Part shown: in pieces, positions 3,096-48,276 of the stretch
Position numbering within the stretch: position 1 is the stretch's first letter
Layout: every line of letters begins with the position of its first letter
Source: an uncultured Methanosarcinales archaeon
Lineage (GTDB): Archaea > Nanobdellota > Nanobdellia > Woesearchaeales > UBA9642
Direction of reading: 5' to 3'
Length of the DNA: 64,000 nucleotides
Assembly: GCA_964545585.1 (NCBI GenBank)
Contig: CAZJFT010000001.1
Coordinates: 6,056 to 70,055, forward strand
Notes under the pieces: model-generated
Databases searched by the model: none
What the model saw: only the letters and a program-made list of their open reading frames with translations
Told to the model about the DNA's origin: nothing
Position numbers and translations under genes: made by a program

Positions 3096-3653
3096 TCAAG
3101 CATATCGTTTTGACAAGGCAAAATATTTATTGTAATCCATCAACCATTGCATGAAATTCCGTTCTTTGGTCATCCTATAATCGACATCTGACTTAACTTT
3201 TGATAATGATCTGGTGCAAAGTTCGACATTGTTCTGCAACGCATTTTTTATGTCCAATATAGGCGTATCACCTCTGAACGAATCGCCTCTGATTATGTAC
3301 TTATCTGCATCTTCTCCAAAGAAATTATTAAGCATATACCCGTGCCATTGCTCCTTAATAATCCGTTTTGCAGCAGGATCTAATAACTCGCCATCATTAT
3401 ATAGCTTAAGATTTGTCCGTATTGCACATTTCAGCATCTCCCTAAAATCTTGCTTATCCATCTTTTCAGACATGGCCTTCATCACTTTCGGAAAATCATT
3501 CACAAAGACAAAATCAGTCTTATAACTATCTAAGTATTGTATGTACGGAACATCAGGGTACTGTATTATTTTATCATAAAGAAGTATTTTTTCTAACGTT
3601 CTAGGCTTCTTTTCCGTTGTAATGTCTGACATCACGAATGTATCGGTCACCAT
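3096..3653 (-). CDS. Hypothetical protein
   Basis: 185 aa ORF, no recognisable motif. Confidence 0.4.
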   Translation of the reverse strand: MVTDTFVMSDITTEKKPRTLEKILLYDKIIQYPDVPYIQYLDSYKTDFVFVNDFPKVMKAMSEKMDKQDFREMLKCAIRTNLKLYNDGELLDPAAKRIIKEQWHGYMLNNFFGEDADKYIIRGDSFRGDTPILDIKNALQNNVELCTRSLSKVKSDVDYRMTKERNFMQWLMDYNKYFALSKRYA

Positions 3654-3768: not shown

Positions 3769-5088
3769 TCATTTCAACTGTATCCTATGGCCATTCTTCA
3801 ATAGGAATACGTTCTTGTTCTCCCTATAGCCTAATTCTTCTGCAAGCTCCAGGAATTGCTCTGCAGTCGCTATCTCAGAATGTGTGGGGATTAGATTTTT
3901 CGGATTGATGATATTTATCAGATCCCTTGCATCCTCTCTAGCGCCATGTCCTGACACATGGATGTCACGGAATATCCTAACTTTTTTCTTCTTCAACTCT
4001 GCTTCCATCTTTTCCCTGTTCTTTATGTTTTCCTCTCCAGGGATTATCGTGCATGAGAATATGACTATGTCTTCCTTCCTGAACTTGAAATAATTGTTGA
4101 ATATCATCCTTGCAAGCACGGATTTAGGCTCTCCTTGATGTCCTGTGACTATGAAAACATAATCTTCTGGCTTCTTGCACTTCTTAAGGAAATCTTGCAC
4201 TTGCTGCCTATATTTTATTATCTTCCCAGTTTTTGAAAACTCTATCACTTTTATGTTCTCTCCTGCGCGCACATACTTCTCAAGACTTCTCCCTAAGAAG
4301 ACGACTTTCCTGTTCAATTGTTTCGCAAATTCCATTATACTTTTCAACCTTGCAAGATGGCTTGAAAATGTACTTACAATCATGGCTTTTCCCTTACTGT
4401 TGGTGGATATCATCACTTCCCTGAGAAGCTCCTTCGCCACAGATTCAGAAGGAGTCTTTATTGGCTTCCCGGCATACAATGAATCCATTATCATGACTTT
4501 CACATCCTTCAACTGTGACATCCTTCCAAGATTCGACTTGCTACCTAAAGTTGGTTGGTTGTCAAGCTTGAAATCATTCGCATACACGACTTTCCCATAC
4601 TTTGTATGTATCACGACCATCGCCGTATGTATCACTGAATGCGTGATGCTTATGAATTCTATCTTGATATTTTCAGATACCTTGAATATGCTATTCACAT
4701 CATGTGCGATAAGCTTGTTAGGGACTCGTATCTCCTTGTCCTCAAGCAAGACCTTCAACACCTCTATTGTGTAAGGTGTCCCATGTATCGGACAATCGAA
4801 TTCTGGCGCAAGGAACGGCGCTGCTCCAACGTGATCAAGATGTGCATGACTTATGCATATCGCTTTCACCTTAGGAACCCAATCCTTCATGACACGTATG
4901 TCTGGCACCGCCTCCAATTCCGTCAATGTCTTCAAAGAAAGATCGACATCATCGTCGTCTTGCGTATAATTTATGTAATTCTGCAGGTGCAATCCCATAT
5001 CGAGAATTATCACTTCATCATCAACCTTGACTGCTGTGCAGTTCTTTCCTACTTCTCTATAGCCCCCTACGGGCATTATTTCTATCAT
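3769..5088 (-). CDS. rnj: RNase J-like metallo-beta-lactamase/beta-CASP ribonuclease
   Basis: 439 aa; N-terminus MIEIMPVGGYREVGKNCTAV; HxHxDH motif ISHAHLDHVGAAP; size fits archaeal RNase J (no KH domains, so not aCPSF1). Confidence 0.7.
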   Translation of the reverse strand: MIEIMPVGGYREVGKNCTAVKVDDEVIILDMGLHLQNYINYTQDDDDVDLSLKTLTELEAVPDIRVMKDWVPKVKAICISHAHLDHVGAAPFLAPEFDCPIHGTPYTIEVLKVLLEDKEIRVPNKLIAHDVNSIFKVSENIKIEFISITHSVIHTAMVVIHTKYGKVVYANDFKLDNQPTLGSKSNLGRMSQLKDVKVMIMDSLYAGKPIKTPSESVAKELLREVMISTNSKGKAMIVSTFSSHLARLKSIMEFAKQLNRKVVFLGRSLEKYVRAGENIKVIEFSKTGKIIKYRQQVQDFLKKCKKPEDYVFIVTGHQGEPKSVLARMIFNNYFKFRKEDIVIFSCTIIPGEENIKNREKMEAELKKKKVRIFRDIHVSGHGAREDARDLINIINPKNLIPTHSEIATAEQFLELAEELGYRENKNVFLLKNGHRIQLK

Positions 5089-42735: not shown

Positions 42736-42748
42736 TTAGAAAATAAAA

Positions 42749-43543
42749 TCATTGATCATCCAGCGGGCTTTTAACATTGATGCTTGTTCTTGCTGTATGT
42801 AAATAAACCATTGTCGTCTCAACACTTATATGTCCAAGCAATGATTGCACAGCCGTAATACCATAACCATCCTCAATCAAGTGCGTAGCGAATGAATGCC
42901 TGAATGTATGCGGATGCACATCTTTTTTGACTCCAGAATCTCTACATGCTCTCTTTATTATCTCCTGTACGCTTCGCATACTATAATGTGCCCCCTTATT
43001 CCCCATAAATAGGTAATGGGCCCCAAAATAATTCTTTAATTCTTCAGATACTGATTTTGGCAGTATGAACATCCTATCCTTTCCACCCTTCCCATTCCTC
43101 ACATAACCTATAAAATTTTGTAAATCAATATCTTCAGGCCTTAACCTCACCACTTCTGACACTCTCAATCCTGCACCATACATCAATGAGATAATCAGTT
43201 TCTGTTTAGGATTATTTATGGCATCGATTATTCTTCTGACCTCTTCTTTTGTCAGGCATGTTGGCAGCCTCTTCGGTCTCTTCGCATACCTTAATCCTAG
43301 ATTCATATTCTTATGCAGGACTTCGACCATCATGAACCTTAAGGCGGCATGCACAACATTTATGGTGTTGCCTGGACTATTCTTATATCTCTCCAAAAAC
43401 AATCTGATGTCCTTCTTTGATATCTTCTTAGGATCAGGATGCCTCTTTAAGAAATGCCTGATAAAAAGCAGATATGTGACCCTAGTTTTTGGGCTCAGAC
43501 GTCTAAACTCCATCTCCTCTCGACATGCCTCTAGAACATCCAT
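42749..43543 (-). CDS. xerA: Tyrosine recombinase (XerA/XerC/D-like)
   Basis: 264 aa; catalytic region HPHTFRHSFATHLIEDGYGITAVQSLLGHISVETTMVYLH (R..HxxR...Y); too short for an IntI-type additional domain. Confidence 0.8.
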   Translation of the reverse strand: MDVLEACREEMEFRRLSPKTRVTYLLFIRHFLKRHPDPKKISKKDIRLFLERYKNSPGNTINVVHAALRFMMVEVLHKNMNLGLRYAKRPKRLPTCLTKEEVRRIIDAINNPKQKLIISLMYGAGLRVSEVVRLRPEDIDLQNFIGYVRNGKGGKDRMFILPKSVSEELKNYFGAHYLFMGNKGAHYSMRSVQEIIKRACRDSGVKKDVHPHTFRHSFATHLIEDGYGITAVQSLLGHISVETTMVYLHTARTSINVKSPLDDQ

Positions 43544-43555
43544 GAATCACCTAAA

Positions 43556-43930
43556 TTATCTTTTTCTATATTTGAATTTCTTGTTATAATCTTTATGATT
43601 GAAAATATCTATGACTACTGCGATAATTTTTACTTCTTGTCCTTTTATAATATATATCATGCGCCAATACCCAGAAAGATTTACTTTCCATAGATTATCT
43701 GCATCATATGCAAGAATATATTCTTCAGGAATAAGATTCTTAGGCACTTGTATGCCGTAGGAAGGATCATTTTTCAATAATATTATTTTTTCTTTGATTG
43801 ACCTAAATAACATTTTTTGAAAATGTTTTGTTTTTTCAGAATCCTTTTCAATAGTTGCTTTTAATTTTTCAAAGAAATCTTTTGCTTCTCCTGCAAGAAC
43901 AACTTCAACTTCTTTTCCATGATAACTCAT
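43556..43930 (-). CDS. RelE/YoeB/ParE-superfamily toxin-like protein
   Basis: 124 aa; C-terminal NLSGYWRMIYIIKGQEVKIIAVVIDIFNHKDY resembles RelE/YoeB toxin core; 4-nt overlap with upstream small gene. Confidence 0.45.
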   Translation of the reverse strand: MSYHGKEVEVVLAGEAKDFFEKLKATIEKDSEKTKHFQKMLFRSIKEKIILLKNDPSYGIQVPKNLIPEEYILAYDADNLWKVNLSGYWRMIYIIKGQEVKIIAVVIDIFNHKDYNKKFKYRKR

Positions 43931-44187
43931 ACTTTCAAGCCTTCTCTGATGGCCTTGTCGAGTTTTGGACTTTCATTATGAATCCAAACAATTCCTTTGC
44001 GGCCGTCCAAGATCTTGCCACTATCCTCTAAATATTTAAGGACAACATTCAATGTCTGATGCATGACTTTTTTCCCTAATTTTTTCTTCAACTGCTCTCG
44101 CGTCATTGCGAGATTTGACTTCTTCAATACGTCTTCTATCATCAATACTGTCCTCAAACTTGGATAGTGCAATACCTTCAAAAACAA
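43927..44187 (-). CDS. Putative antitoxin / small DNA-binding protein
   Basis: 86 aa; first gene of operon antitoxin-toxin-recombinase; HTH-like central segment. Confidence 0.35.
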   Translation of the reverse strand: MFLKVLHYPSLRTVLMIEDVLKKSNLAMTREQLKKKLGKKVMHQTLNVVLKYLEDSGKILDGRKGIVWIHNESPKLDKAIREGLKV

Positions 44188-44192
44188 CCACC

Positions 44193-44241
44193 TTTTATAT
44201 AAATTTATACATATAAGTATATACTTTTATATAAATTTTAT
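44193..44241. promoter_or_regulatory. Divergent promoter region with direct repeats ttttatataaattt(a) x2 (TATA-like) flanking a palindrome tatacatataagtatata
   Basis: ccttttatataaatttatacatataagtatatacttttatataaatttta. Confidence 0.4.
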
Positions 44242-44349
44242 GGTTTGTTTCAAAGTAACATGATCAATATAGCATCTTTTATCTGTCTTTCTTAGAAAAA
44301 AACGTAAATCCTCTACCATCAACCGTAAATCCTTCAAATCGACATAAGC

Positions 44350-44390
44350 AATATTGCGTTTTAAACCCCTTAAAACGCAACCAATATTAT
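44350..44390. repeat. Imperfect ~40-bp palindrome: IR arms attgcgttttaa / ttaaaacgcaa around acccc
   Basis: aatattgcgttttaaaccccttaaaacgcaaccaatatt, ending 1 nt before the ATG at 44389. Confidence 0.6.
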
Positions 44391-44730
44391 GCTTCGCATA
44401 AAAAGGATTATGTGCAATTATTACTCGAAATTATTGGGCTCGAAAGTGTTAAATATAGAATCGCTTCTTCTACTCAATGTGAAACCTTATAATGATTATC
44501 GGAATCCTTATATTTACTTGATAAGCCTTATTTCGTTAATTCCATCAATTATAATCTGGTTTCTGACAAAGAACCTTTTTTTCAACACAAATAACATTTA
44601 TCTATATTATTTTCAGATTATTTTACATCCATTAATCTTGATGGCTGTGATCGGAATTGCTTATTATTTCCTTTGGAACAAGTATAAACAATCGAAGGAT
44701 TTCAAGAAGCGATACCCGAAGGCCCAATAA
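44389..44730 (+). CDS. Small membrane protein (2 TM)
   Basis: 113 aa; hydrophobic helices; basic C-terminus. Confidence 0.45.
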   Translation: MLRIKRIMCNYYSKLLGSKVLNIESLLLLNVKPYNDYRNPYIYLISLISLIPSIIIWFLTKNLFFNTNNIYLYYFQIILHPLILMAVIGIAYYFLWNKYKQSKDFKKRYPKAQ

Positions 44731-44893
44731 TTTCTGCGTCATAACTTCTGCGCTCTTCGGACTCACTTCGTTCGCCTCAGTGCTCGACTTTCACAGGAGG
44801 TCGCGCCTCGAGGGTAGATTACCTAACCACTCGAGTCGCTCCGCTCGCAAAAGGCACATAACATCGATTAGGCGAAATTCAGAATTCGGGCCG
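44731..44893. repeat. GC-rich mosaic spacer element 1 (shares blocks with elements at 45780-45882, 46209-46304, 46564-46640)
   Basis: Blocks ctgcgctcttcggactc...gcctcagtgctcg (direct copy in element 4), cgcaaaaggcacataacatcgatta (direct in element 3, inverted-like in element 2), ttcagaattcgggcc (inverted in element 2); internal hairpin GCGCCTCGAG...CTCGAGTCGC. Confidence 0.6.
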
Positions 44894-45794
44894 TAAATAG
44901 TCTTTTAATTGTTTATTTGATAATATTTTCTGATTGATTGTGTTAATAATAAAATTATAAGAATTATGCCTATTATTATCGTTATTATATCTATGCTTCT
45001 ATATAACATTTCAGGTTTTTTGAGTATAATAGAAAACGTATTCCAAGAATAATATGCGCTTGTTATCACTAAGAAACTTATCGAGGATATGGAGATAATC
45101 CACGTGTTCTTTTCTGGATTGTTTATTCTTATTGCCATAACTAATAATGCTATTGTAAGAATTATTCTTATGATTAGACTCCATAAATATTTTGATCCAT
45201 ATTGTAAGCTACTTATTCCTCCAGTAAAAATGTAGAAAATGGTTAAAGCAGTAAAAAAATATATTATCCATCTTATGATGTTTCGATATGTATCGCTTGA
45301 AGCAAGAACTTTTTCATTATCAATAGGGGTATGCCCACCAAAATAGTATAATCTAATATCTGGTCGTAATAATAGGTATAATACGACTACTCCTAATAAT
45401 AGCATGTAAAAATTCATATTTATAATAGAAAATGTTAAATTTCTTAGGGCAGAGTATGCAATTATAATTAAGGTTAAAATCAATAGTATTAGCCATACCC
45501 AAATACTTTTCTTATCCATAAAGAAAATAAGTACAATTAATGACAACGGAATAATATATATTAAACCCAAAATCCACAATGGTCCTCCACCCATCAAAAA
45601 TATTGGAAGCCCAAAAAAAGTAAGATAAACAATTAAGATAACTGCAAGAAAAGCCAATAATCCTTTTAATAACTTTAGTGATTTAGGAATATCAGCAGTA
45701 TCCAAAGTTTTATTCATGTTCTAACAATTCCAGTTATTGTTTAAATATTTTATCATAATATACGACAATGATACACATAGGCCCGAATTCTGAA
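44878..45794. repeat. Segment bracketed by 15-bp perfect inverted repeats ttcagaattcgggcc (44878-44892) / ggcccgaattctgaa (45780-45794), containing exactly one gene in opposite orientation to its neighbours
   Basis: Direct comparison of the two sites; enclosed gene 44905..45717 is on the minus strand while flanking small genes are on the plus strand. Confidence 0.7.
44905..45717 (-). CDS. Polytopic membrane protein (6-8 TM)
   Basis: 270 aa; highly hydrophobic with I/L-rich helices. Confidence 0.5.
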   Translation of the reverse strand: MNKTLDTADIPKSLKLLKGLLAFLAVILIVYLTFFGLPIFLMGGGPLWILGLIYIIPLSLIVLIFFMDKKSIWVWLILLILTLIIIAYSALRNLTFSIINMNFYMLLLGVVVLYLLLRPDIRLYYFGGHTPIDNEKVLASSDTYRNIIRWIIYFFTALTIFYIFTGGISSLQYGSKYLWSLIIRIILTIALLVMAIRINNPEKNTWIISISSISFLVITSAYYSWNTFSIILKKPEMLYRSIDIITIIIGIILIILLLTQSIRKYYQINN

Positions 45795-45882
45795 CTCAAA
45801 ACATCTTCGATGTTTTGCCTCGCTGTCGCTCGGTCGCCTAACAACAATTAGTTTCAATTCAGTTTAAGGCGCTTTGAAGTCA
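45780..45882. repeat. GC-rich mosaic spacer element 2
   Basis: ggcccgaattctgaa...tcgatgtt...gtcgctcggtcgcc...attagtttcaattcagtttaaggcgc. Confidence 0.55.
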
Positions 45883-46228
45883 CCAAAACAATTATAAACC
45901 TCTGTATTTATAATAGATTATGAACAAGAAATATCTTATACTCTTGATATGTGCACTAATAGTTTTGCCAATCATACTTTTCTATCCTAAAGAAAATAAT
46001 GTTTGGAATGATTCTTTTACTGCAGCCATAACAAAACAATATAAGAATATGGATTGTACTTGTATAGGCTTTACAGGAATGAAACCAGATTTGACTCAGT
46101 CAGATATTCAAATACAATTATGTTATGGCATACCTGTTGATTGTAAATATTCCTGTAAAAAAGAAATTGATGGCAAATGGCAAGATATTTCTTGTGAACA
46201 ATTAGATTAAAACGCGCCTTAAACTGAA
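45858..46228. repeat. Segment bracketed by 15-bp perfect inverted repeats ttcagtttaaggcgc (45858-45872) / gcgccttaaactgaa (46214-46228) containing one gene
   Basis: Direct comparison; the right repeat begins 4 nt after the stop codon of 45920..46210. Confidence 0.7.
45920..46210 (+). CDS. Small secreted cysteine-rich protein
   Basis: 96 aa; signal peptide MNKKYLILLICALIVLPIILF; 6 Cys in the mature part. Confidence 0.45.
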   Translation: MNKKYLILLICALIVLPIILFYPKENNVWNDSFTAAITKQYKNMDCTCIGFTGMKPDLTQSDIQIQLCYGIPVDCKYSCKKEIDGKWQDISCEQLD

Positions 46229-46304
46229 CTTTCTCGCCTTATGGCTCGAACTTTTCCTTGCGGAAAAGGAAACTAACATCGATTAATATCAATAGCGCCA
46301 CTAT
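46209..46304. repeat. GC-rich mosaic spacer element 3
   Basis: gcgccttaaactgaa...gcggaaaaggaaactaacatcgatta...atagcgccactat. Confidence 0.55.
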
Positions 46305-46577
46305 ACTATATGCGAAAGTATTAAATATAAGAAATACTAAAAACAACACATGGCTTGTGGCATGTTATATTTACCACTTTTTGGATTTATACATTTTAGT
46401 CTAGCGATATTACTTTGGTTATTACTAGGAATAATAATATCAACTATTCTTCCTAAATTTGTAAACAAGGAAAAAATTAATATTTTTAGGATATCTTTGG
46501 GGATAATTATTGTATTATTAATCATATATAGCTTCTTATTTGGAAGAGCATGTGTTGACTAATCATAGTGGCGCTAC
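46292..46577. repeat. Segment bracketed by ~12-bp inverted repeats atagcgccactat (46292-46304) / atagtggcgctac (46565-46577) containing one gene
   Basis: 11 of 13 positions perfectly complementary; right repeat begins 3 nt after the stop of 46350..46562. Confidence 0.6.
46350..46562 (+). CDS. Small membrane protein (2 TM)
   Basis: 70 aa; two hydrophobic helices. Confidence 0.4.
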   Translation: MACGMLYLPLFGFIHFSLAILLWLLLGIIISTILPKFVNKEKINIFRISLGIIIVLLIIYSFLFGRACVD

Positions 46578-46640
46578 TCTGCGGACTCTTCGAGTCCTTG
46601 CCTCACTAGCGTTCGGGGTGCTTAACACGCGATTAGTTTC
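46564..46640. repeat. GC-rich mosaic spacer element 4
   Basis: atagtggcgctactctgcggactcttcgagtccttgcctcactagcg (direct copy of element-1 block; hairpin GGACTCttcGAGTCC) + attagtttcaattc (direct copy from element 2). Confidence 0.55.
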
Positions 46641-48276
46641 AATTCTCTTTCTTCTTCACAATCTTCTTTTTCCTTCCAGAAGTGTTGTTTGCCATCCATA
46701 TTTTCCGCGATGCGTATTGTGCCGGATTTTTTATCTTTGGGCAAAATCCGTCTGGGTGGCAGAATTGTGTGTCTATCATGTATCCTTTATTGTCGCAATT
46801 AGGGGGAGATAATTTCTCTTTTTGTGACTTATGATATCGTAGTTGTCCTTTGATGTATGTCTCGCGTAATTTGTCCGGAGAATTTCTTTCGTTCCATTTC
46901 AAAACATACTCCGCTATCCTTTCATGTGGCCAATTGCATGATGAAAGGAAGTTTATCAATATCAACAATGCACGCTTCTTGCCATCCTCTAACCCGGCAG
47001 ATATGTGTTGTATGCATGGAGGGAAGTATTCTTCAGGGATTGCCTGCGCATTCTCTTCAATATTAGAGTCTTTTTTATATTCTCTCTTATATGTCTCTTT
47101 CAATGAATCCTTCTTCTGTTTCTCCGTCTGGAAATCGAATGCTTTCTGGAATAATTGCTCTGCCTCTGAAGACTTGCACGATTCTCTTTCTAAGAAAGCG
47201 TAAGGTTTGAACTTCGAAGGCTCTGCTTCTGATTTCTCGAATTTCAATATTCTCTTTATGTCGAACGGCATCGAGACAAGGCCGGTCTTTTCATGAAGTG
47301 AATAAGGCATCCTGTAAAGGTGCCTTGAACTTATCAGTATCGTGTCTACTGCAACTATCTTTGAGAGGTCGAACTCTTTGCGAACAGAGTCGGAGCCGCA
47401 CTTGCATATGCTCTTCTTGATAGGGTGTTTCTCCATAATCTTCTTGCATTTAGGGCATTGCATGAACGGCTTATCTGCGTCCTCAAGAGAATTTTCACAA
47501 TATGGACAGATATATTGTATCCTGTCCTTAGGCATCTCTTTTATTGAAGAATCACATTTATTGCACTTTATGACTATCATATCTTCTTTCTTTGTGCCTG
47601 TCTCTGATTCGAGTCGAGATATCGGAACAGACACTTTTCCAAAGCGTATCTTCTCTTCATCCACAACAATAAGATTCTTATCGACATAATCGACTATATA
47701 TGCCGCAATCCTTCTAGGTCCGTCAGGGAAAAGGTCCTTCACATCAAAATATTTACCGTCAAGATAATATTGTTTTTTAGGGAATGCTTCAAACGGAACA
47801 GCGATATGGAAACCTTTTGAACCGGAGAATTTTACAGTCACTGAATCGATCCCGTGGTCCTTCAATGCTTTTATGAAAACGTAAGCTGCAAGCTTGCTGA
47901 ACGTCCAGTAAGGACAGTCAATATCTAATATCAAATCCCATCCCTTGCGCAGATCATCTATCTCATTCTTTTTCAAATTAGGATTTATCTGCAACGGATT
48001 AGACCATAATTCCTCAGAGCAATGGAATGAAGTGGCCCCTTTCTTAGCAGACTCAAGAATATCATTCTCATACATCAATGTGTCAGGACGCTTTCCGAAT
48101 GATTCATTATAACGAACAGCAATCTCCTTATCCATAGCATACATTAGAAGAAGTTTCTGGACCTCTTTTCTCTTATAATATGATAATGTCTGATGGAGCT
48201 CAAGCATGAAGGATGAGAATAAGACTGCGTTTATATAGGTTTTTGTAGAATGTCTAGTGCTTGCACTCAACAGCAT
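46639..48276 (-). CDS. priS: DNA primase, fused PriS catalytic domain + PriL-CTD-like Fe-S domain (true start possibly at an internal Met downstream of the fur overlap)
   Basis: PriS core DLILDIDCPYWTF...SVTVKFSGSKGFHIAVPF; Zn ribbon CNKCD...CPYC; C-terminal PPCIQHISAGLEDGKKRALLILINFLSSCNW...PPNCDNKGYMIDTQFCHPDGFCPKI resembles the PriL C-terminal domain. Confidence 0.7.
   Translation of the reverse strand: MLLSASTRHSTKTYINAVLFSSFMLELHQTLSYYKRKEVQKLLLMYAMDKEIAVRYNESFGKRPDTLMYENDILESAKKGATSFHCSEELWSNPLQINPNLKKNEIDDLRKGWDLILDIDCPYWTFSKLAAYVFIKALKDHGIDSVTVKFSGSKGFHIAVPFEAFPKKQYYLDGKYFDVKDLFPDGPRRIAAYIVDYVDKNLIVVDEEKIRFGKVSVPISRLESETGTKKEDMIVIKCNKCDSSIKEMPKDRIQYICPYCENSLEDADKPFMQCPKCKKIMEKHPIKKSICKCGSDSVRKEFDLSKIVAVDTILISSRHLYRMPYSLHEKTGLVSMPFDIKRILKFEKSEAEPSKFKPYAFLERESCKSSEAEQLFQKAFDFQTEKQKKDSLKETYKREYKKDSNIEENAQAIPEEYFPPCIQHISAGLEDGKKRALLILINFLSSCNWPHERIAEYVLKWNERNSPDKLRETYIKGQLRYHKSQKEKLSPPNCDNKGYMIDTQFCHPDGFCPKIKNPAQYASRKIWMANNTSGRKKKIVKKKEN

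Follow-up and report, generated by a model that had tools for sequence, protein, structure and literature searches.

A 64-kb stretch of genomic DNA from a Woesearchaeales archaeon (contig CAZJFT010000001.1), referred to here as the window, contains a 3.9-kb island (42736–46643; 42.74–46.64 kb) in which a gene for a XerA-like tyrosine recombinase lies beside four small genes, each enclosed by its own inverted repeat (IR) and followed by a spacer. The recombinase is encoded at the end of a minus-strand operon (42749–44187) with the order helix-turn-helix (HTH) protein, toxin-like protein, recombinase. The initial annotation of this DNA had the order right but described the operon as co-directional with the small genes; lying on the minus strand, it is instead divergent from those on the plus strand. 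Gene 44905–45717 had also been singled out as the only one in reverse orientation, and it does run opposite to the other small genes, but in the same direction as the operon. Each spacer ends in a 28-bp core carrying a predicted crossover point. We use cassette for the DNA from one crossover to the next, arms for the IR enclosing a cassette's gene, and outer pair for the half-sites at the two ends of a cassette; the core nearest the operon is called attI-like. Related loci or contigs compared with the window carry labels of the form Lnnn (L002, L102, L174 and so on). The features of the island are as follows.

42736–42763, plus strand: left island border, possible decayed core TTAGAAAATAA-AATCAT-TGATCATCCAG, directly after the RNase Z stop codon and aligning with a core in L175
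42749–43543, minus strand: XerA-like tyrosine recombinase, 264 aa, presumed catalyst (matches to Pfam Phage_integrase and a SAM-like N domain)
43556–43930, minus strand: RelE/ParE-superfamily-like toxin candidate, 124 aa (sub-threshold YoeB/ParE matches only)
43927–44187, minus strand: small winged-helix-like protein, 86 aa, antitoxin or regulator candidate (weak winged-helix match of an ortholog)
44354–44380, no strand assigned: palindrome TTGCGTTTTAA-N5-TTAAAACGCAA in the conserved attI-side flank
44391–44418, plus strand: attI-like first core GCTTCGCATAA-AAAGGA-TTATGTGCAAT; crossover 44407/44408, placed by the homology break between the window and L002
44408–44867, plus strand: cassette 1, 460 nt, small protein with two transmembrane (TM) segments; outer pair TTATGTGC/GCACATAA
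44851–44878, plus strand: core J1 AAGGCACATAA-CATCGA-TTAGGCGAAAT; crossover 44867/44868
44868–45847, plus strand: cassette 2, 980 nt; outer pair TTAGGCGA/TCGCCTAA; arms 44878–44892 / 45780–45794
45831–45858, plus strand: core J2 CGGTCGCCTAA-CAACAA-TTAGTTTCAAT; crossover 45847/45848
45848–46282, plus strand: cassette 3, 435 nt; outer pair TTAGTTTC/GAAACTAA; arms 45858–45872 / 46214–46228
46266–46293, plus strand: core J3 AAGGAAACTAA-CATCGA-TTAATATCAAT; crossover 46282/46283
46283–46632, plus strand: cassette 4, 350 nt; arms 46293–46304 / 46565–46576; outer pair decayed
46615–46643, plus strand: terminal core J4 GGGGTGCTTAA-CACGCGA-TTAGTTTCAAT, with a 7-nt centre

The five cores, at 44391, 44851, 45831, 46266 and 46615, all lie on the plus strand in direct orientation, and no core with this context was found elsewhere in the 64-kb window. 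Their common form, nGG-N5-TAA / CAnnGA / TTA-N5-AAT, spans 28 bp in an 11-6-11 arrangement, the geometry described for dif, in which two 11-nt inverted arms surround a 6-nt spacer (PMC8371274). Related loci were collected by a recombinase-seeded scan of one genome per species, which gave ten Woesearchaeota loci, and by a core-pattern scan of metagenome contigs, which gave 85 loci, of which ~25 were arrays. The 11-6-11 form fits the five cores of the window and, overall, 54 distinct junctions, a conservation that was partly imposed by the search. The arms of the attI-like core match E. coli dif at 18 of 22 positions. The J3 junction sequence followed by TAGCGCC arms was found again in L002, and the right arm of J4 overlaps the stop codon of the neighboring primase gene (46639–46641). 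The motifs GCCTAAC and ATTAGGC, which had been taken for attC-like core motifs, do occur; rather than forming the R''/R' ends of an attC, they make up the two halves of one 28-bp core, just 4 nt apart.

The crossover was placed by comparison with relatives. The window and L002, whose recombinases are 91% identical, have in common a 63-nt flank that is 100% identical and ends in ...TCGCATAA-AAAGGA; homology runs through ...AAAAAGGA and breaks at TTA, after which the two loci carry different cassettes. Because the homology break fell there, the crossover register was moved to A/TTA. An alternative crossover at CAA/T, directly before the left arm and analogous to the G/TT of attC, was rejected since the break lies 10 nt further left and since half-sites pair across the cassette rather than within one spacer. 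The flank also holds the palindrome at 44354–44380 (11 bp with a 5-nt spacer, 10 nt upstream of the first core), which is identical and at the same distance in L002. The initial annotation had seen this hairpin as an empty site; the hairpin is there, but inside the L002-identical 63-nt flank and outside the recombination core. The toxin/HTH pair of L002 occupies another position, yet the palindrome is unchanged there, which ties it to attI or the recombinase and not to the promoter of a toxin–antitoxin (TA) pair. Beyond attI, the first cassette opens with TTATTACTCG both in the window (44418–44427) and in L005 (reverse strand, ~4132), whose recombinase is 49% identical to that of the window, which hints at either a conserved first cassette or an extended attI.

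The cassettes follow a single plan, TTA-N5-AA-armL ... armR-C-(two hairpins)-N5-TAA-CAnnGA. The left arm begins exactly after the AA of the core and the right arm ends exactly before a C, which opens an internal segment of 19–109 nt leading to the next core. Three of these repeats had been noted initially, and all three are present with the arm positions listed above: the perfect 15-bp IR around gene 44905–45717, the 15-bp IR around gene 45920–46210 (15 bp perfect, or 18 bp at 94%) and the ~12-bp IR around gene 46350–46562. The first gene, which had been left unbracketed, has arms as well (44418–44439 / 44722–44744), perfect over 13 bp (44427–44439 / 44722–44734) and imperfect beyond, to 44418 / 44744. 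Between 44200 and 46750 there are six perfect IRs of at least 12 bp, four of which are cassette arms, compared to a mean of 0.83 in 300 dinucleotide-preserving shuffles of the same interval. The spacers are not the mixed-orientation mosaics that had been described but homologous structured elements, all direct, in which the supposed inverted blocks are hairpin stems. Within the 64-kb window, no spacer copy was found outside this locus, and the spacers were accordingly rejected as generic repeats of the repetitive extragenic palindromic (REP) type. Transfer RNA genes, tRNA fragments and known RNA families were likewise rejected as identities for the spacers: ARAGORN found no tRNA gene in the window or the reconstructed sites described below, and there was no Rfam match for spacers or sites at gathering score or at E ≤ 1.

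All four cassettes encode membrane or secreted proteins. The open reading frame (ORF) in cassette 1 was listed as 44389–44730, but the likelier start is GTG 44479 rather than ATG 44389, because a motif resembling an archaeal TFB-recognition element (BRE) and TATA box lies upstream of the former, at 44441–44457. The reversed gene of cassette 2 (44905–45717) encodes a 270-aa protein with 8 TM segments; among 5.8 billion proteins it had no homolog but itself, and with the protein an ORFan, tracing cassette 2 elsewhere by protein homology was abandoned. Cassette 3 carries a 96-aa Cys-rich protein with a signal-peptide-like N-terminus (45920–46210). Inside its arms lies a further 21-nt IR (86%; 45917–45937 / 46182–46202) that spans the start codon and the last codons of the ORF. 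Cassette 4 encodes a 70-aa protein with two TM segments (46350–46562). The near-identical motif CGAAAGTrTTAAATATA occurs in cassettes 1 (44441–44457) and 4 (46313–46329), ~20–25 nt upstream of the likely starts, and looks like an archaeal BRE/TATA promoter for leaderless mRNAs. Cassettes thus appear to carry their own archaeal promoters, which would leave gene orientation free.

The two ends of a cassette covary. Across the window and related loci, 60 distinct inter-core intervals were compared; in 34 of them the half-sites of the same cassette were complementary at all 5 variable positions, with 19 different sequences, while the two halves of one junction matched in only 4 and shuffles gave 3.0. 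Where the outer pair was perfect, the arms followed the same rule, with an IR score of at least 9 between own partners in 29 of 34 cassettes and between non-own partners in 7 of 1120 comparisons. We therefore folded each cassette's end joined to its own start, as in an excised circle, using DNA parameters. The reconstructed circular site is ~75–160 nt long and runs from the arms stem through two unpaired bases, hairpin 1, hairpin 2, hairpin 3 and an AA back into the arms; hairpin 3 has the outer pair as its 8-bp stem and the 6-nt centre in its loop, and it carries the crossover A/TTA. Across 32 reconstructed sites, hairpin 3 formed in 32, the arms in 31 and exactly three hairpins in 27, and the median z-score against shuffles was -8.2. 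RNAalifold recovered both helices in ten sites, with 17 pairs that were 99.4% paired and of which 13 change on both sides; as these ten were chosen for pairing, the 60-interval and 32-site analyses give the unbiased figures. The internal hairpins show compensatory changes between lineages too (CTGCG/CGCAG vs TTGCG/CGCAA; TTTCCAG/CTGGAAA vs TTTTGAG/CTCAAAA).

This arrangement bears on where the fold would act. The spacers are strongly structured but contain no attC-like R''...R' pair, and the full fold needs both cassette ends. In the array a gene separates the pairing partners, so the complete fold cannot form there. The promoter-like motifs are themselves downstream of the left arm, so that the transcript of a cassette would be without one pairing partner. 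Together, these two considerations point to a function at the DNA level, in the excised form.

The same organization recurs in relatives. All six of the recombinase-seeded loci with at least 1 kb of upstream sequence (L002, L003, L005, L006, L007 and L010; recombinases 43–91% identical to that of the window) have cores on the divergent strand, and the remaining four are cut by contig ends. The divergent layout of recombinase, core and array, which is that of integrons, is found in L002, L005–L007, L141 and L166, and the placement of a core ~200 bp upstream of the HTH gene is repeated in L141 and L166. Every related array, like the window, has its cores in direct orientation. Arrays are often at contig ends (L001, L002, L005, L008, L009, L011).

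Cassettes move between these arrays as discrete units. L102 and L103 have a 720-nt cassette that is 100% identical but is followed by different cassettes, and identity ends 3 nt past the predicted crossover, that is, with the invariant TTA. Likewise, identity of a two-cassette block common to L103 and L147 ends 5 nt past the crossover. The window and L002 have attI in common but wholly different cargo, sharing one cassette start only (TTAATATC-AA-TAGCGCC), despite 91% identity of their recombinases. In this comparison of related genomes, cassette content and neighbors differed, but inverted cassette copies between related contigs were not found. The 34 cassette ORFs of related arrays are oriented 21 vs 13, so the reversed gene of the window is unremarkable and not the trace of an inversion that it had been taken for. 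Related-array cargo includes ParE toxins, a Dam-type methylase, a GNAT acetyltransferase, a SET-domain protein and DUF2283. A membrane segment was predicted in just 10 of the 34 ORFs, so most of this cargo does not consist of surface proteins.

Several other features of related arrays were observed. Gene-less mini-cassettes of ~108–125 nt, with little beyond the recombination site, occur at L002:3860–3968 and 3458–3571, at L005:72–180 and in L146 and L147; the type with TAGCGCC arms is present twice in L002 and has its start in common with cassette 4 of the window. Three cassettes, at L002:711–1959, L005:181–3824 and L006:2257–3997 (all on the reverse strand), have common arms TAATTTTTAGTGGCT and a common inner repeat GGGGGACATTTC/GAAATGTCCCCC; they share ~50 nt at the left end and ~110 nt at the right end, while their cargo is unrelated and their cores differ. 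In L005, positions 1–88 are identical to 4072–4160 (reverse strand), so that the sequence after the last core, at the contig end, equals that after the first; either cassette 1 is duplicated in tandem or the assembly wraps around.

The island as a whole is absent from close relatives. In L174, L175, L176 and L177, synteny is kept on both sides but the part corresponding to 42.74–46.63 kb of the window (recombinase, toxin/HTH pair and cassettes) is missing, and the Fur -> primase genes meet RNase Z across a spacer of just 58–341 nt. L174 has 87–89% nucleotide identity to the window, and L175 belongs to the same metagenome-assembled genome (MAG) as L002. On the right side, synteny resumes at 46633. 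In L174 (11830–11932, reverse strand, against window 42749–42814), ~60 nt of the recombinase 3' end remain, fused to a cassette start, AAATAA-ACTACT/TTATACACAAT/TAAATTTTAGTGGCT, with the geometry [..TAA][6 nt]/[TTA-N5-AAT]; this junction has the appearance of a site-specific deletion that took place at a pseudo-core within the gene for the recombinase. The RNase Z–primase spacer of L175 contains a near-palindromic core, GAGAAACTGA-TATCGA-TTAGTTTCAAG, and one cassette encoding 66 aa, without a recombinase. The alignment of this core with 42736–42763 is weak indication that the left border of the island is a decayed core. A viral or plasmid origin was rejected, as viral-contig scans gave only unrelated chance matches, and GC skew was uninformative for placing the locus at a replication terminus because it tracks gene orientation over the 64 kb. 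The flanking primase (46639–48276) is a single 545-aa protein with small- and large-subunit primase domains and Zn-ribbon-like Cys motifs, that is, a fused PriS-PriL conserved across Woesearchaeota.

The recombinase was rightly called XerA-like. It has the make-up of the Xer family, with core-binding and catalytic domains only, and scores 211.9 bits on the NCBIfam model XerA_Arch (NF040815), just under the cut-off of 220. The integron-integrase model TIGR02249 matched in two pieces only, with a score of 200 bits where the cut-off is 265. Among solved structures, the closest relative of the recombinase is Pyrococcus abyssi XerA (4A8E), which aligned in a single stretch (13–251), whereas against VchIntIA (2A3V) query residues 6–173 and 186–261 aligned and VchIntIA 182–240 faced just 12 query residues. 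This is the region of the IntI-specific domain, and by this alignment the recombinase lacks the insertion that is considered defining and necessary for integron recombination (Ghaly et al., PMC9668308; Smyshlyaev et al., PMC8138268). Exact-protein look-ups of the window recombinase gave no match. Of its operon partners, the toxin candidate and its orthologs matched YoeB (E = 0.003) and ParE-like models (E = 0.003–0.01), all below model thresholds, and the candidate is kept together with the recombinase in L001, L002, L004 and L166. The 86-aa winged-helix-like protein has no Pfam match, and the end of its gene overlaps the start of the toxin-candidate gene by 4 nt. Placement of the HTH and toxin-like pair varies: it lies between attI and the recombinase in the window and downstream, on the other side of the recombinase, in L002. 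In L007 (3792–4411, reverse strand), a homolog of the pair sits inside the array as a cassette.

Given the anatomy of sites and cassettes, the covariation of cassette ends, the recurrence of the arrangement beside orthologous recombinases, exchange at the predicted boundary and the absence of the island in relatives, we consider it probable that the island is a gene-cassette platform, integron-like in its working but built of Xer/dif parts. Such a platform is most likely an analogue of the integron based on Xer, with recombination sites of a new type, and widespread in Woesearchaeota. In the mechanism that we propose, the XerA-like recombinase would be co-transcribed with the TA-like pair, divergent beside an attI-like dif-type core with the four cassettes beyond. 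Excision between two neighboring cores would release a circle, joining the two ends of the cassette. In the circle the arms would pair, and N5-TAA would pair with TTA-N5 into an 8-bp stem closing a 6-nt loop; the two internal hairpins would complete a cloverleaf, that is, a four-way junction. The recombinase would cleave at the arm/centre boundary, at A/TTA on the top strand, which equals cleavage after TAA on the bottom strand, and strand exchange with the attI-like core or another junction would insert, excise or reorder cassettes. The adjacent recombinase is the presumed catalyst; the substrate would be the site in its folded form, probably as single-stranded DNA with the bottom strand the likely one, and we infer that only one strand is exchanged.

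Several findings weigh against this interpretation. Cassette 4 breaks the outer-pair rule (TTAATATC vs GTGCTTAA, 5/8 paired, with a 7-nt centre), though the L002 mini-cassettes sharing its start retain the pair TTAATATC/GATATTAA. The invariance of the core arises partly by construction: the search patterns fixed TAA, TTA, AAT and the first C and left the covarying positions free, so that the constancy of the fixed positions proves little. In 29 of 32 sites the fold is more stable on the bottom strand, but this preference comes from two conserved C·A oppositions that turn into G·T there, not from many independent events. For the same reason, the asymmetry of G·T wobbles (69 vs 5 pairs) was discarded as proof of bottom-strand folding, the internal hairpins being symmetric. 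The bottom strand as the folded form is thus only suggestive, although it would agree with the crossover, since top-strand A/TTA corresponds to cleavage after TAA at the bottom-strand arm/centre boundary. By sequence, the recombinase is indistinguishable from a XerA of the ordinary housekeeping kind. In the array contigs that came from the pattern scan of metagenomes, most of which are short, the fetched stretch never includes the recombinase gene. The shared ends and unrelated cargo of the three cassettes in L002, L005 and L006 are unexplained by simple whole-cassette transfer, and the left border of the island is not recognizable as a junction.

The sequence properties of the recombinase also suit a different reading, in which the cassettes are hitchhikers on dimer resolution comparable to integrative mobile elements exploiting Xer (IMEX). 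CTX-phi and its relatives integrate at Vibrio dif in this way. Here the recombinase would be the single housekeeping XerA, the attI-like core the chromosomal dif, and the cassettes parasites integrating there. The recombinase is indeed a typical XerA in sequence and size, the cores have the 11-6-11 geometry and dif-like arms, the cassettes encode no recombinase of their own, and the RNase Z–primase spacer of L175 has a dif-like core with no recombinase nearby. We nevertheless regard this explanation as unlikely, because the array adjoins the recombinase gene, divergently, in every informative locus, whereas in Thermococcales dif is reported not to be adjacent to xerA (PMC2958812). Moreover, recombinase and array are absent at the syntenic position in relatives and deleted in L174, a surprising state for an essential system, unless there is a second copy, and many functional dif sites in direct repeat would be unstable. 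Multiple direct-repeat cores and a unit missing in relatives also argue against a plain single dif. A cluster of attC sites lacking integron-integrases (CALIN), in which an IntI encoded elsewhere would act on the spacers as ordinary attC sites and the XerA-like gene would be a bystander, finds a precedent in the attC clusters without IntI reported from several Woesearchaeales MAGs (Ghaly et al. 2022, PMC9668308), in RYYYAAC- and GTTRRRY-like heptamers in the cores and in the integron-like cargo spectrum. However, no R''...R' pair 35–160 nt apart is present on either strand of 44.3–46.7 kb. The heptamers are 4 nt apart and come from different cassettes, complementarity lies across the gene and not within the spacer (34 vs 4), and the crossover falls between the two heptamers. 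With an adjacent recombinase that lacks the IntI-type insertion, and an array–recombinase adjacency that recurs down to 43% protein identity, a canonical integron remnant seems very unlikely. Some of the Woesearchaeales attC clusters of Ghaly et al. may be these same arrays mis-parsed.

The initial annotation had favored a shufflon or inverton in which the recombinase flips each IR-bracketed gene segment and so varies surface proteins. Perfect 12–15-bp IRs around single genes, one gene reversed relative to its neighbors and membrane or secreted products of all four window cassettes would fit such a system. Yet the bracketing repeats differ from cassette to cassette without a common recognizable sequence, and the conserved cores are direct repeats. 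Orientation is mixed (21 vs 13) among the related cassette ORFs, and no inverted cassette copies were seen between contigs, where identical cassettes differ in their neighbors and not in orientation. Each gene's promoter-like motif lies inside the arms, so that flipping would leave expression unswitched, and we find segment inversion hardly credible here. Least plausible of all, in our view, is a reading of the spacers as elements of structure or regulation that do not move, such as terminators, REP-like repeats or small RNA genes, and whose repeats play no role in recombination. The spacers are GC-rich, strongly structured and just downstream of genes, as such elements would be, but within the 64-kb window they are confined to the locus, show no Rfam match or tRNA-like fold, form their full fold only from both cassette ends, which the gene keeps apart and one of which would be missing from the cassette's own transcript, and bound cassettes that are exchanged between arrays. 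The initial observation was thus largely right. Its inversion reading is not supported, while the integron-like alternative that it mentioned was right in spirit: there are discrete cassettes beside a divergent tyrosine recombinase, with content differing between genomes, but the recombinase is XerA-like without the IntI domain and the sites are not attC.

We give roughly even credence to a fuller proposal: that the island represents a previously unrecognized gene-capture system of Woesearchaeota, the Xer-based counterpart of the integron, which either arose convergently or survives as a relative of IntI's Xer-like ancestor. In this proposal a XerA of ordinary appearance would recombine cassettes at sites that fold as cloverleaves, probably in single-stranded form, and mimic dif, and close relatives would gain and lose the platform as a unit, with its recombinase, addiction module, attI and cassettes. 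The literature, of which coverage was incomplete, yielded no account of arrays of this kind, which is weak evidence of novelty.

Among known systems, shufflons and invertons of the Rci/sfx, Fim and Hin types use one shared repeat in inverted orientation, between whose copies segments flip. The island resembles them in having a tyrosine recombinase gene beside short IR-bracketed gene segments, but its IRs are unique to each cassette and its shared sites are direct. The pdif modules of Acinetobacter plasmids carry 28-bp Xer-type sites in inverted orientation (C/D ... D/C) with conserved XerC/XerD arms. They are likewise small gene modules, including TA genes, bounded by 28-bp Xer-type sites in varying contexts, whereas here the cores are direct, the arms are cassette-specific and there are additional nested repeats and hairpins. 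With archaeal XerA and dif (PMC2958812, PMC8371274) the island has in common the recombinase family, the 11-6-11 geometry, cleavage at the spacer ends and the inner arm bases TAA/TTA. It differs in its many direct-repeat cores with accessory genes between them, in the middle five arm bases, which vary freely but covary with a partner hundreds of bases away, and in the position of the cores, which adjoin the recombinase gene in a unit present or absent between close relatives.

The integron is the textbook case of a recombinase that reads the shape of DNA rather than its sequence, and the special domain of IntI is thought to enable this. The locus points to the same logic, swappable single-gene cassettes with sites conserved in their fold, achieved with an unadorned Xer-type enzyme and a different fold. 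If this is confirmed, cassette capture would have originated, or have been maintained, outside the lineage of IntI. It would also supply a concrete model for a possible evolution of integron recombination from chromosome-dimer resolution, and an explanation for the fast-changing accessory gene pool of genome-reduced, host-dependent DPANN archaea. Standard integron finders, keyed on IntI and attC models, would probably miss or mis-parse such arrays, at which contigs tend to break. Like IntI/attI/attC systems, including the archaeal integrons of Ghaly et al. 2022 (PMC9668308), the island has a tyrosine recombinase gene divergent from an attI-like site followed by tandem small, mostly single-gene cassettes. 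In both, structure and not sequence defines the site, and the crossover divides it into halves, so that each integrated cassette is bracketed by its own inverted repeat. Further parallels are a crossover before TT(A), comparable to G/TT, cargo rich in ORFans, TA genes, methylases and acetyltransferases, sites that are closer within a lineage than between lineages, and discrete cassettes exchanged at a fixed crossover, identity ending 3–5 nt past A/TTA. On the other hand, the recombinase is XerA-like and lacks the IntI-specific insertion around patch III. An attC is a bulged hairpin, R''-L''...L'-R', with the crossover at its base and the R''/R' ends ~57–141 nt apart in one spacer, whereas the site here is a ~75–160-nt cloverleaf with the crossover at the loop of an inner hairpin, which is at the same time a 28-bp dif-like palindrome. 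The cassettes of integrons have no promoters and rely on a common Pc, while those here seem to have their own, with BRE/TATA-like motifs in cassettes 1 and 4, and genes stand in either orientation. In CTX-phi, an IMEX, the single-stranded genome folds into a forked hairpin that mimics dif. The island is similar in having mobile DNA without its own recombinase at a dif-type site, in its tandem arrays and, as proposed here, in a folded single-strand substrate with one-strand exchange; it is different in that single-gene cassettes take the place of phage genomes, the fold is a four-way cloverleaf and the recombinase gene travels with the array. In mechanism, the nearest precedents are the attC of integrons in its folded state and the dif mimic that the single-stranded DNA of CTX-phi forms by folding.

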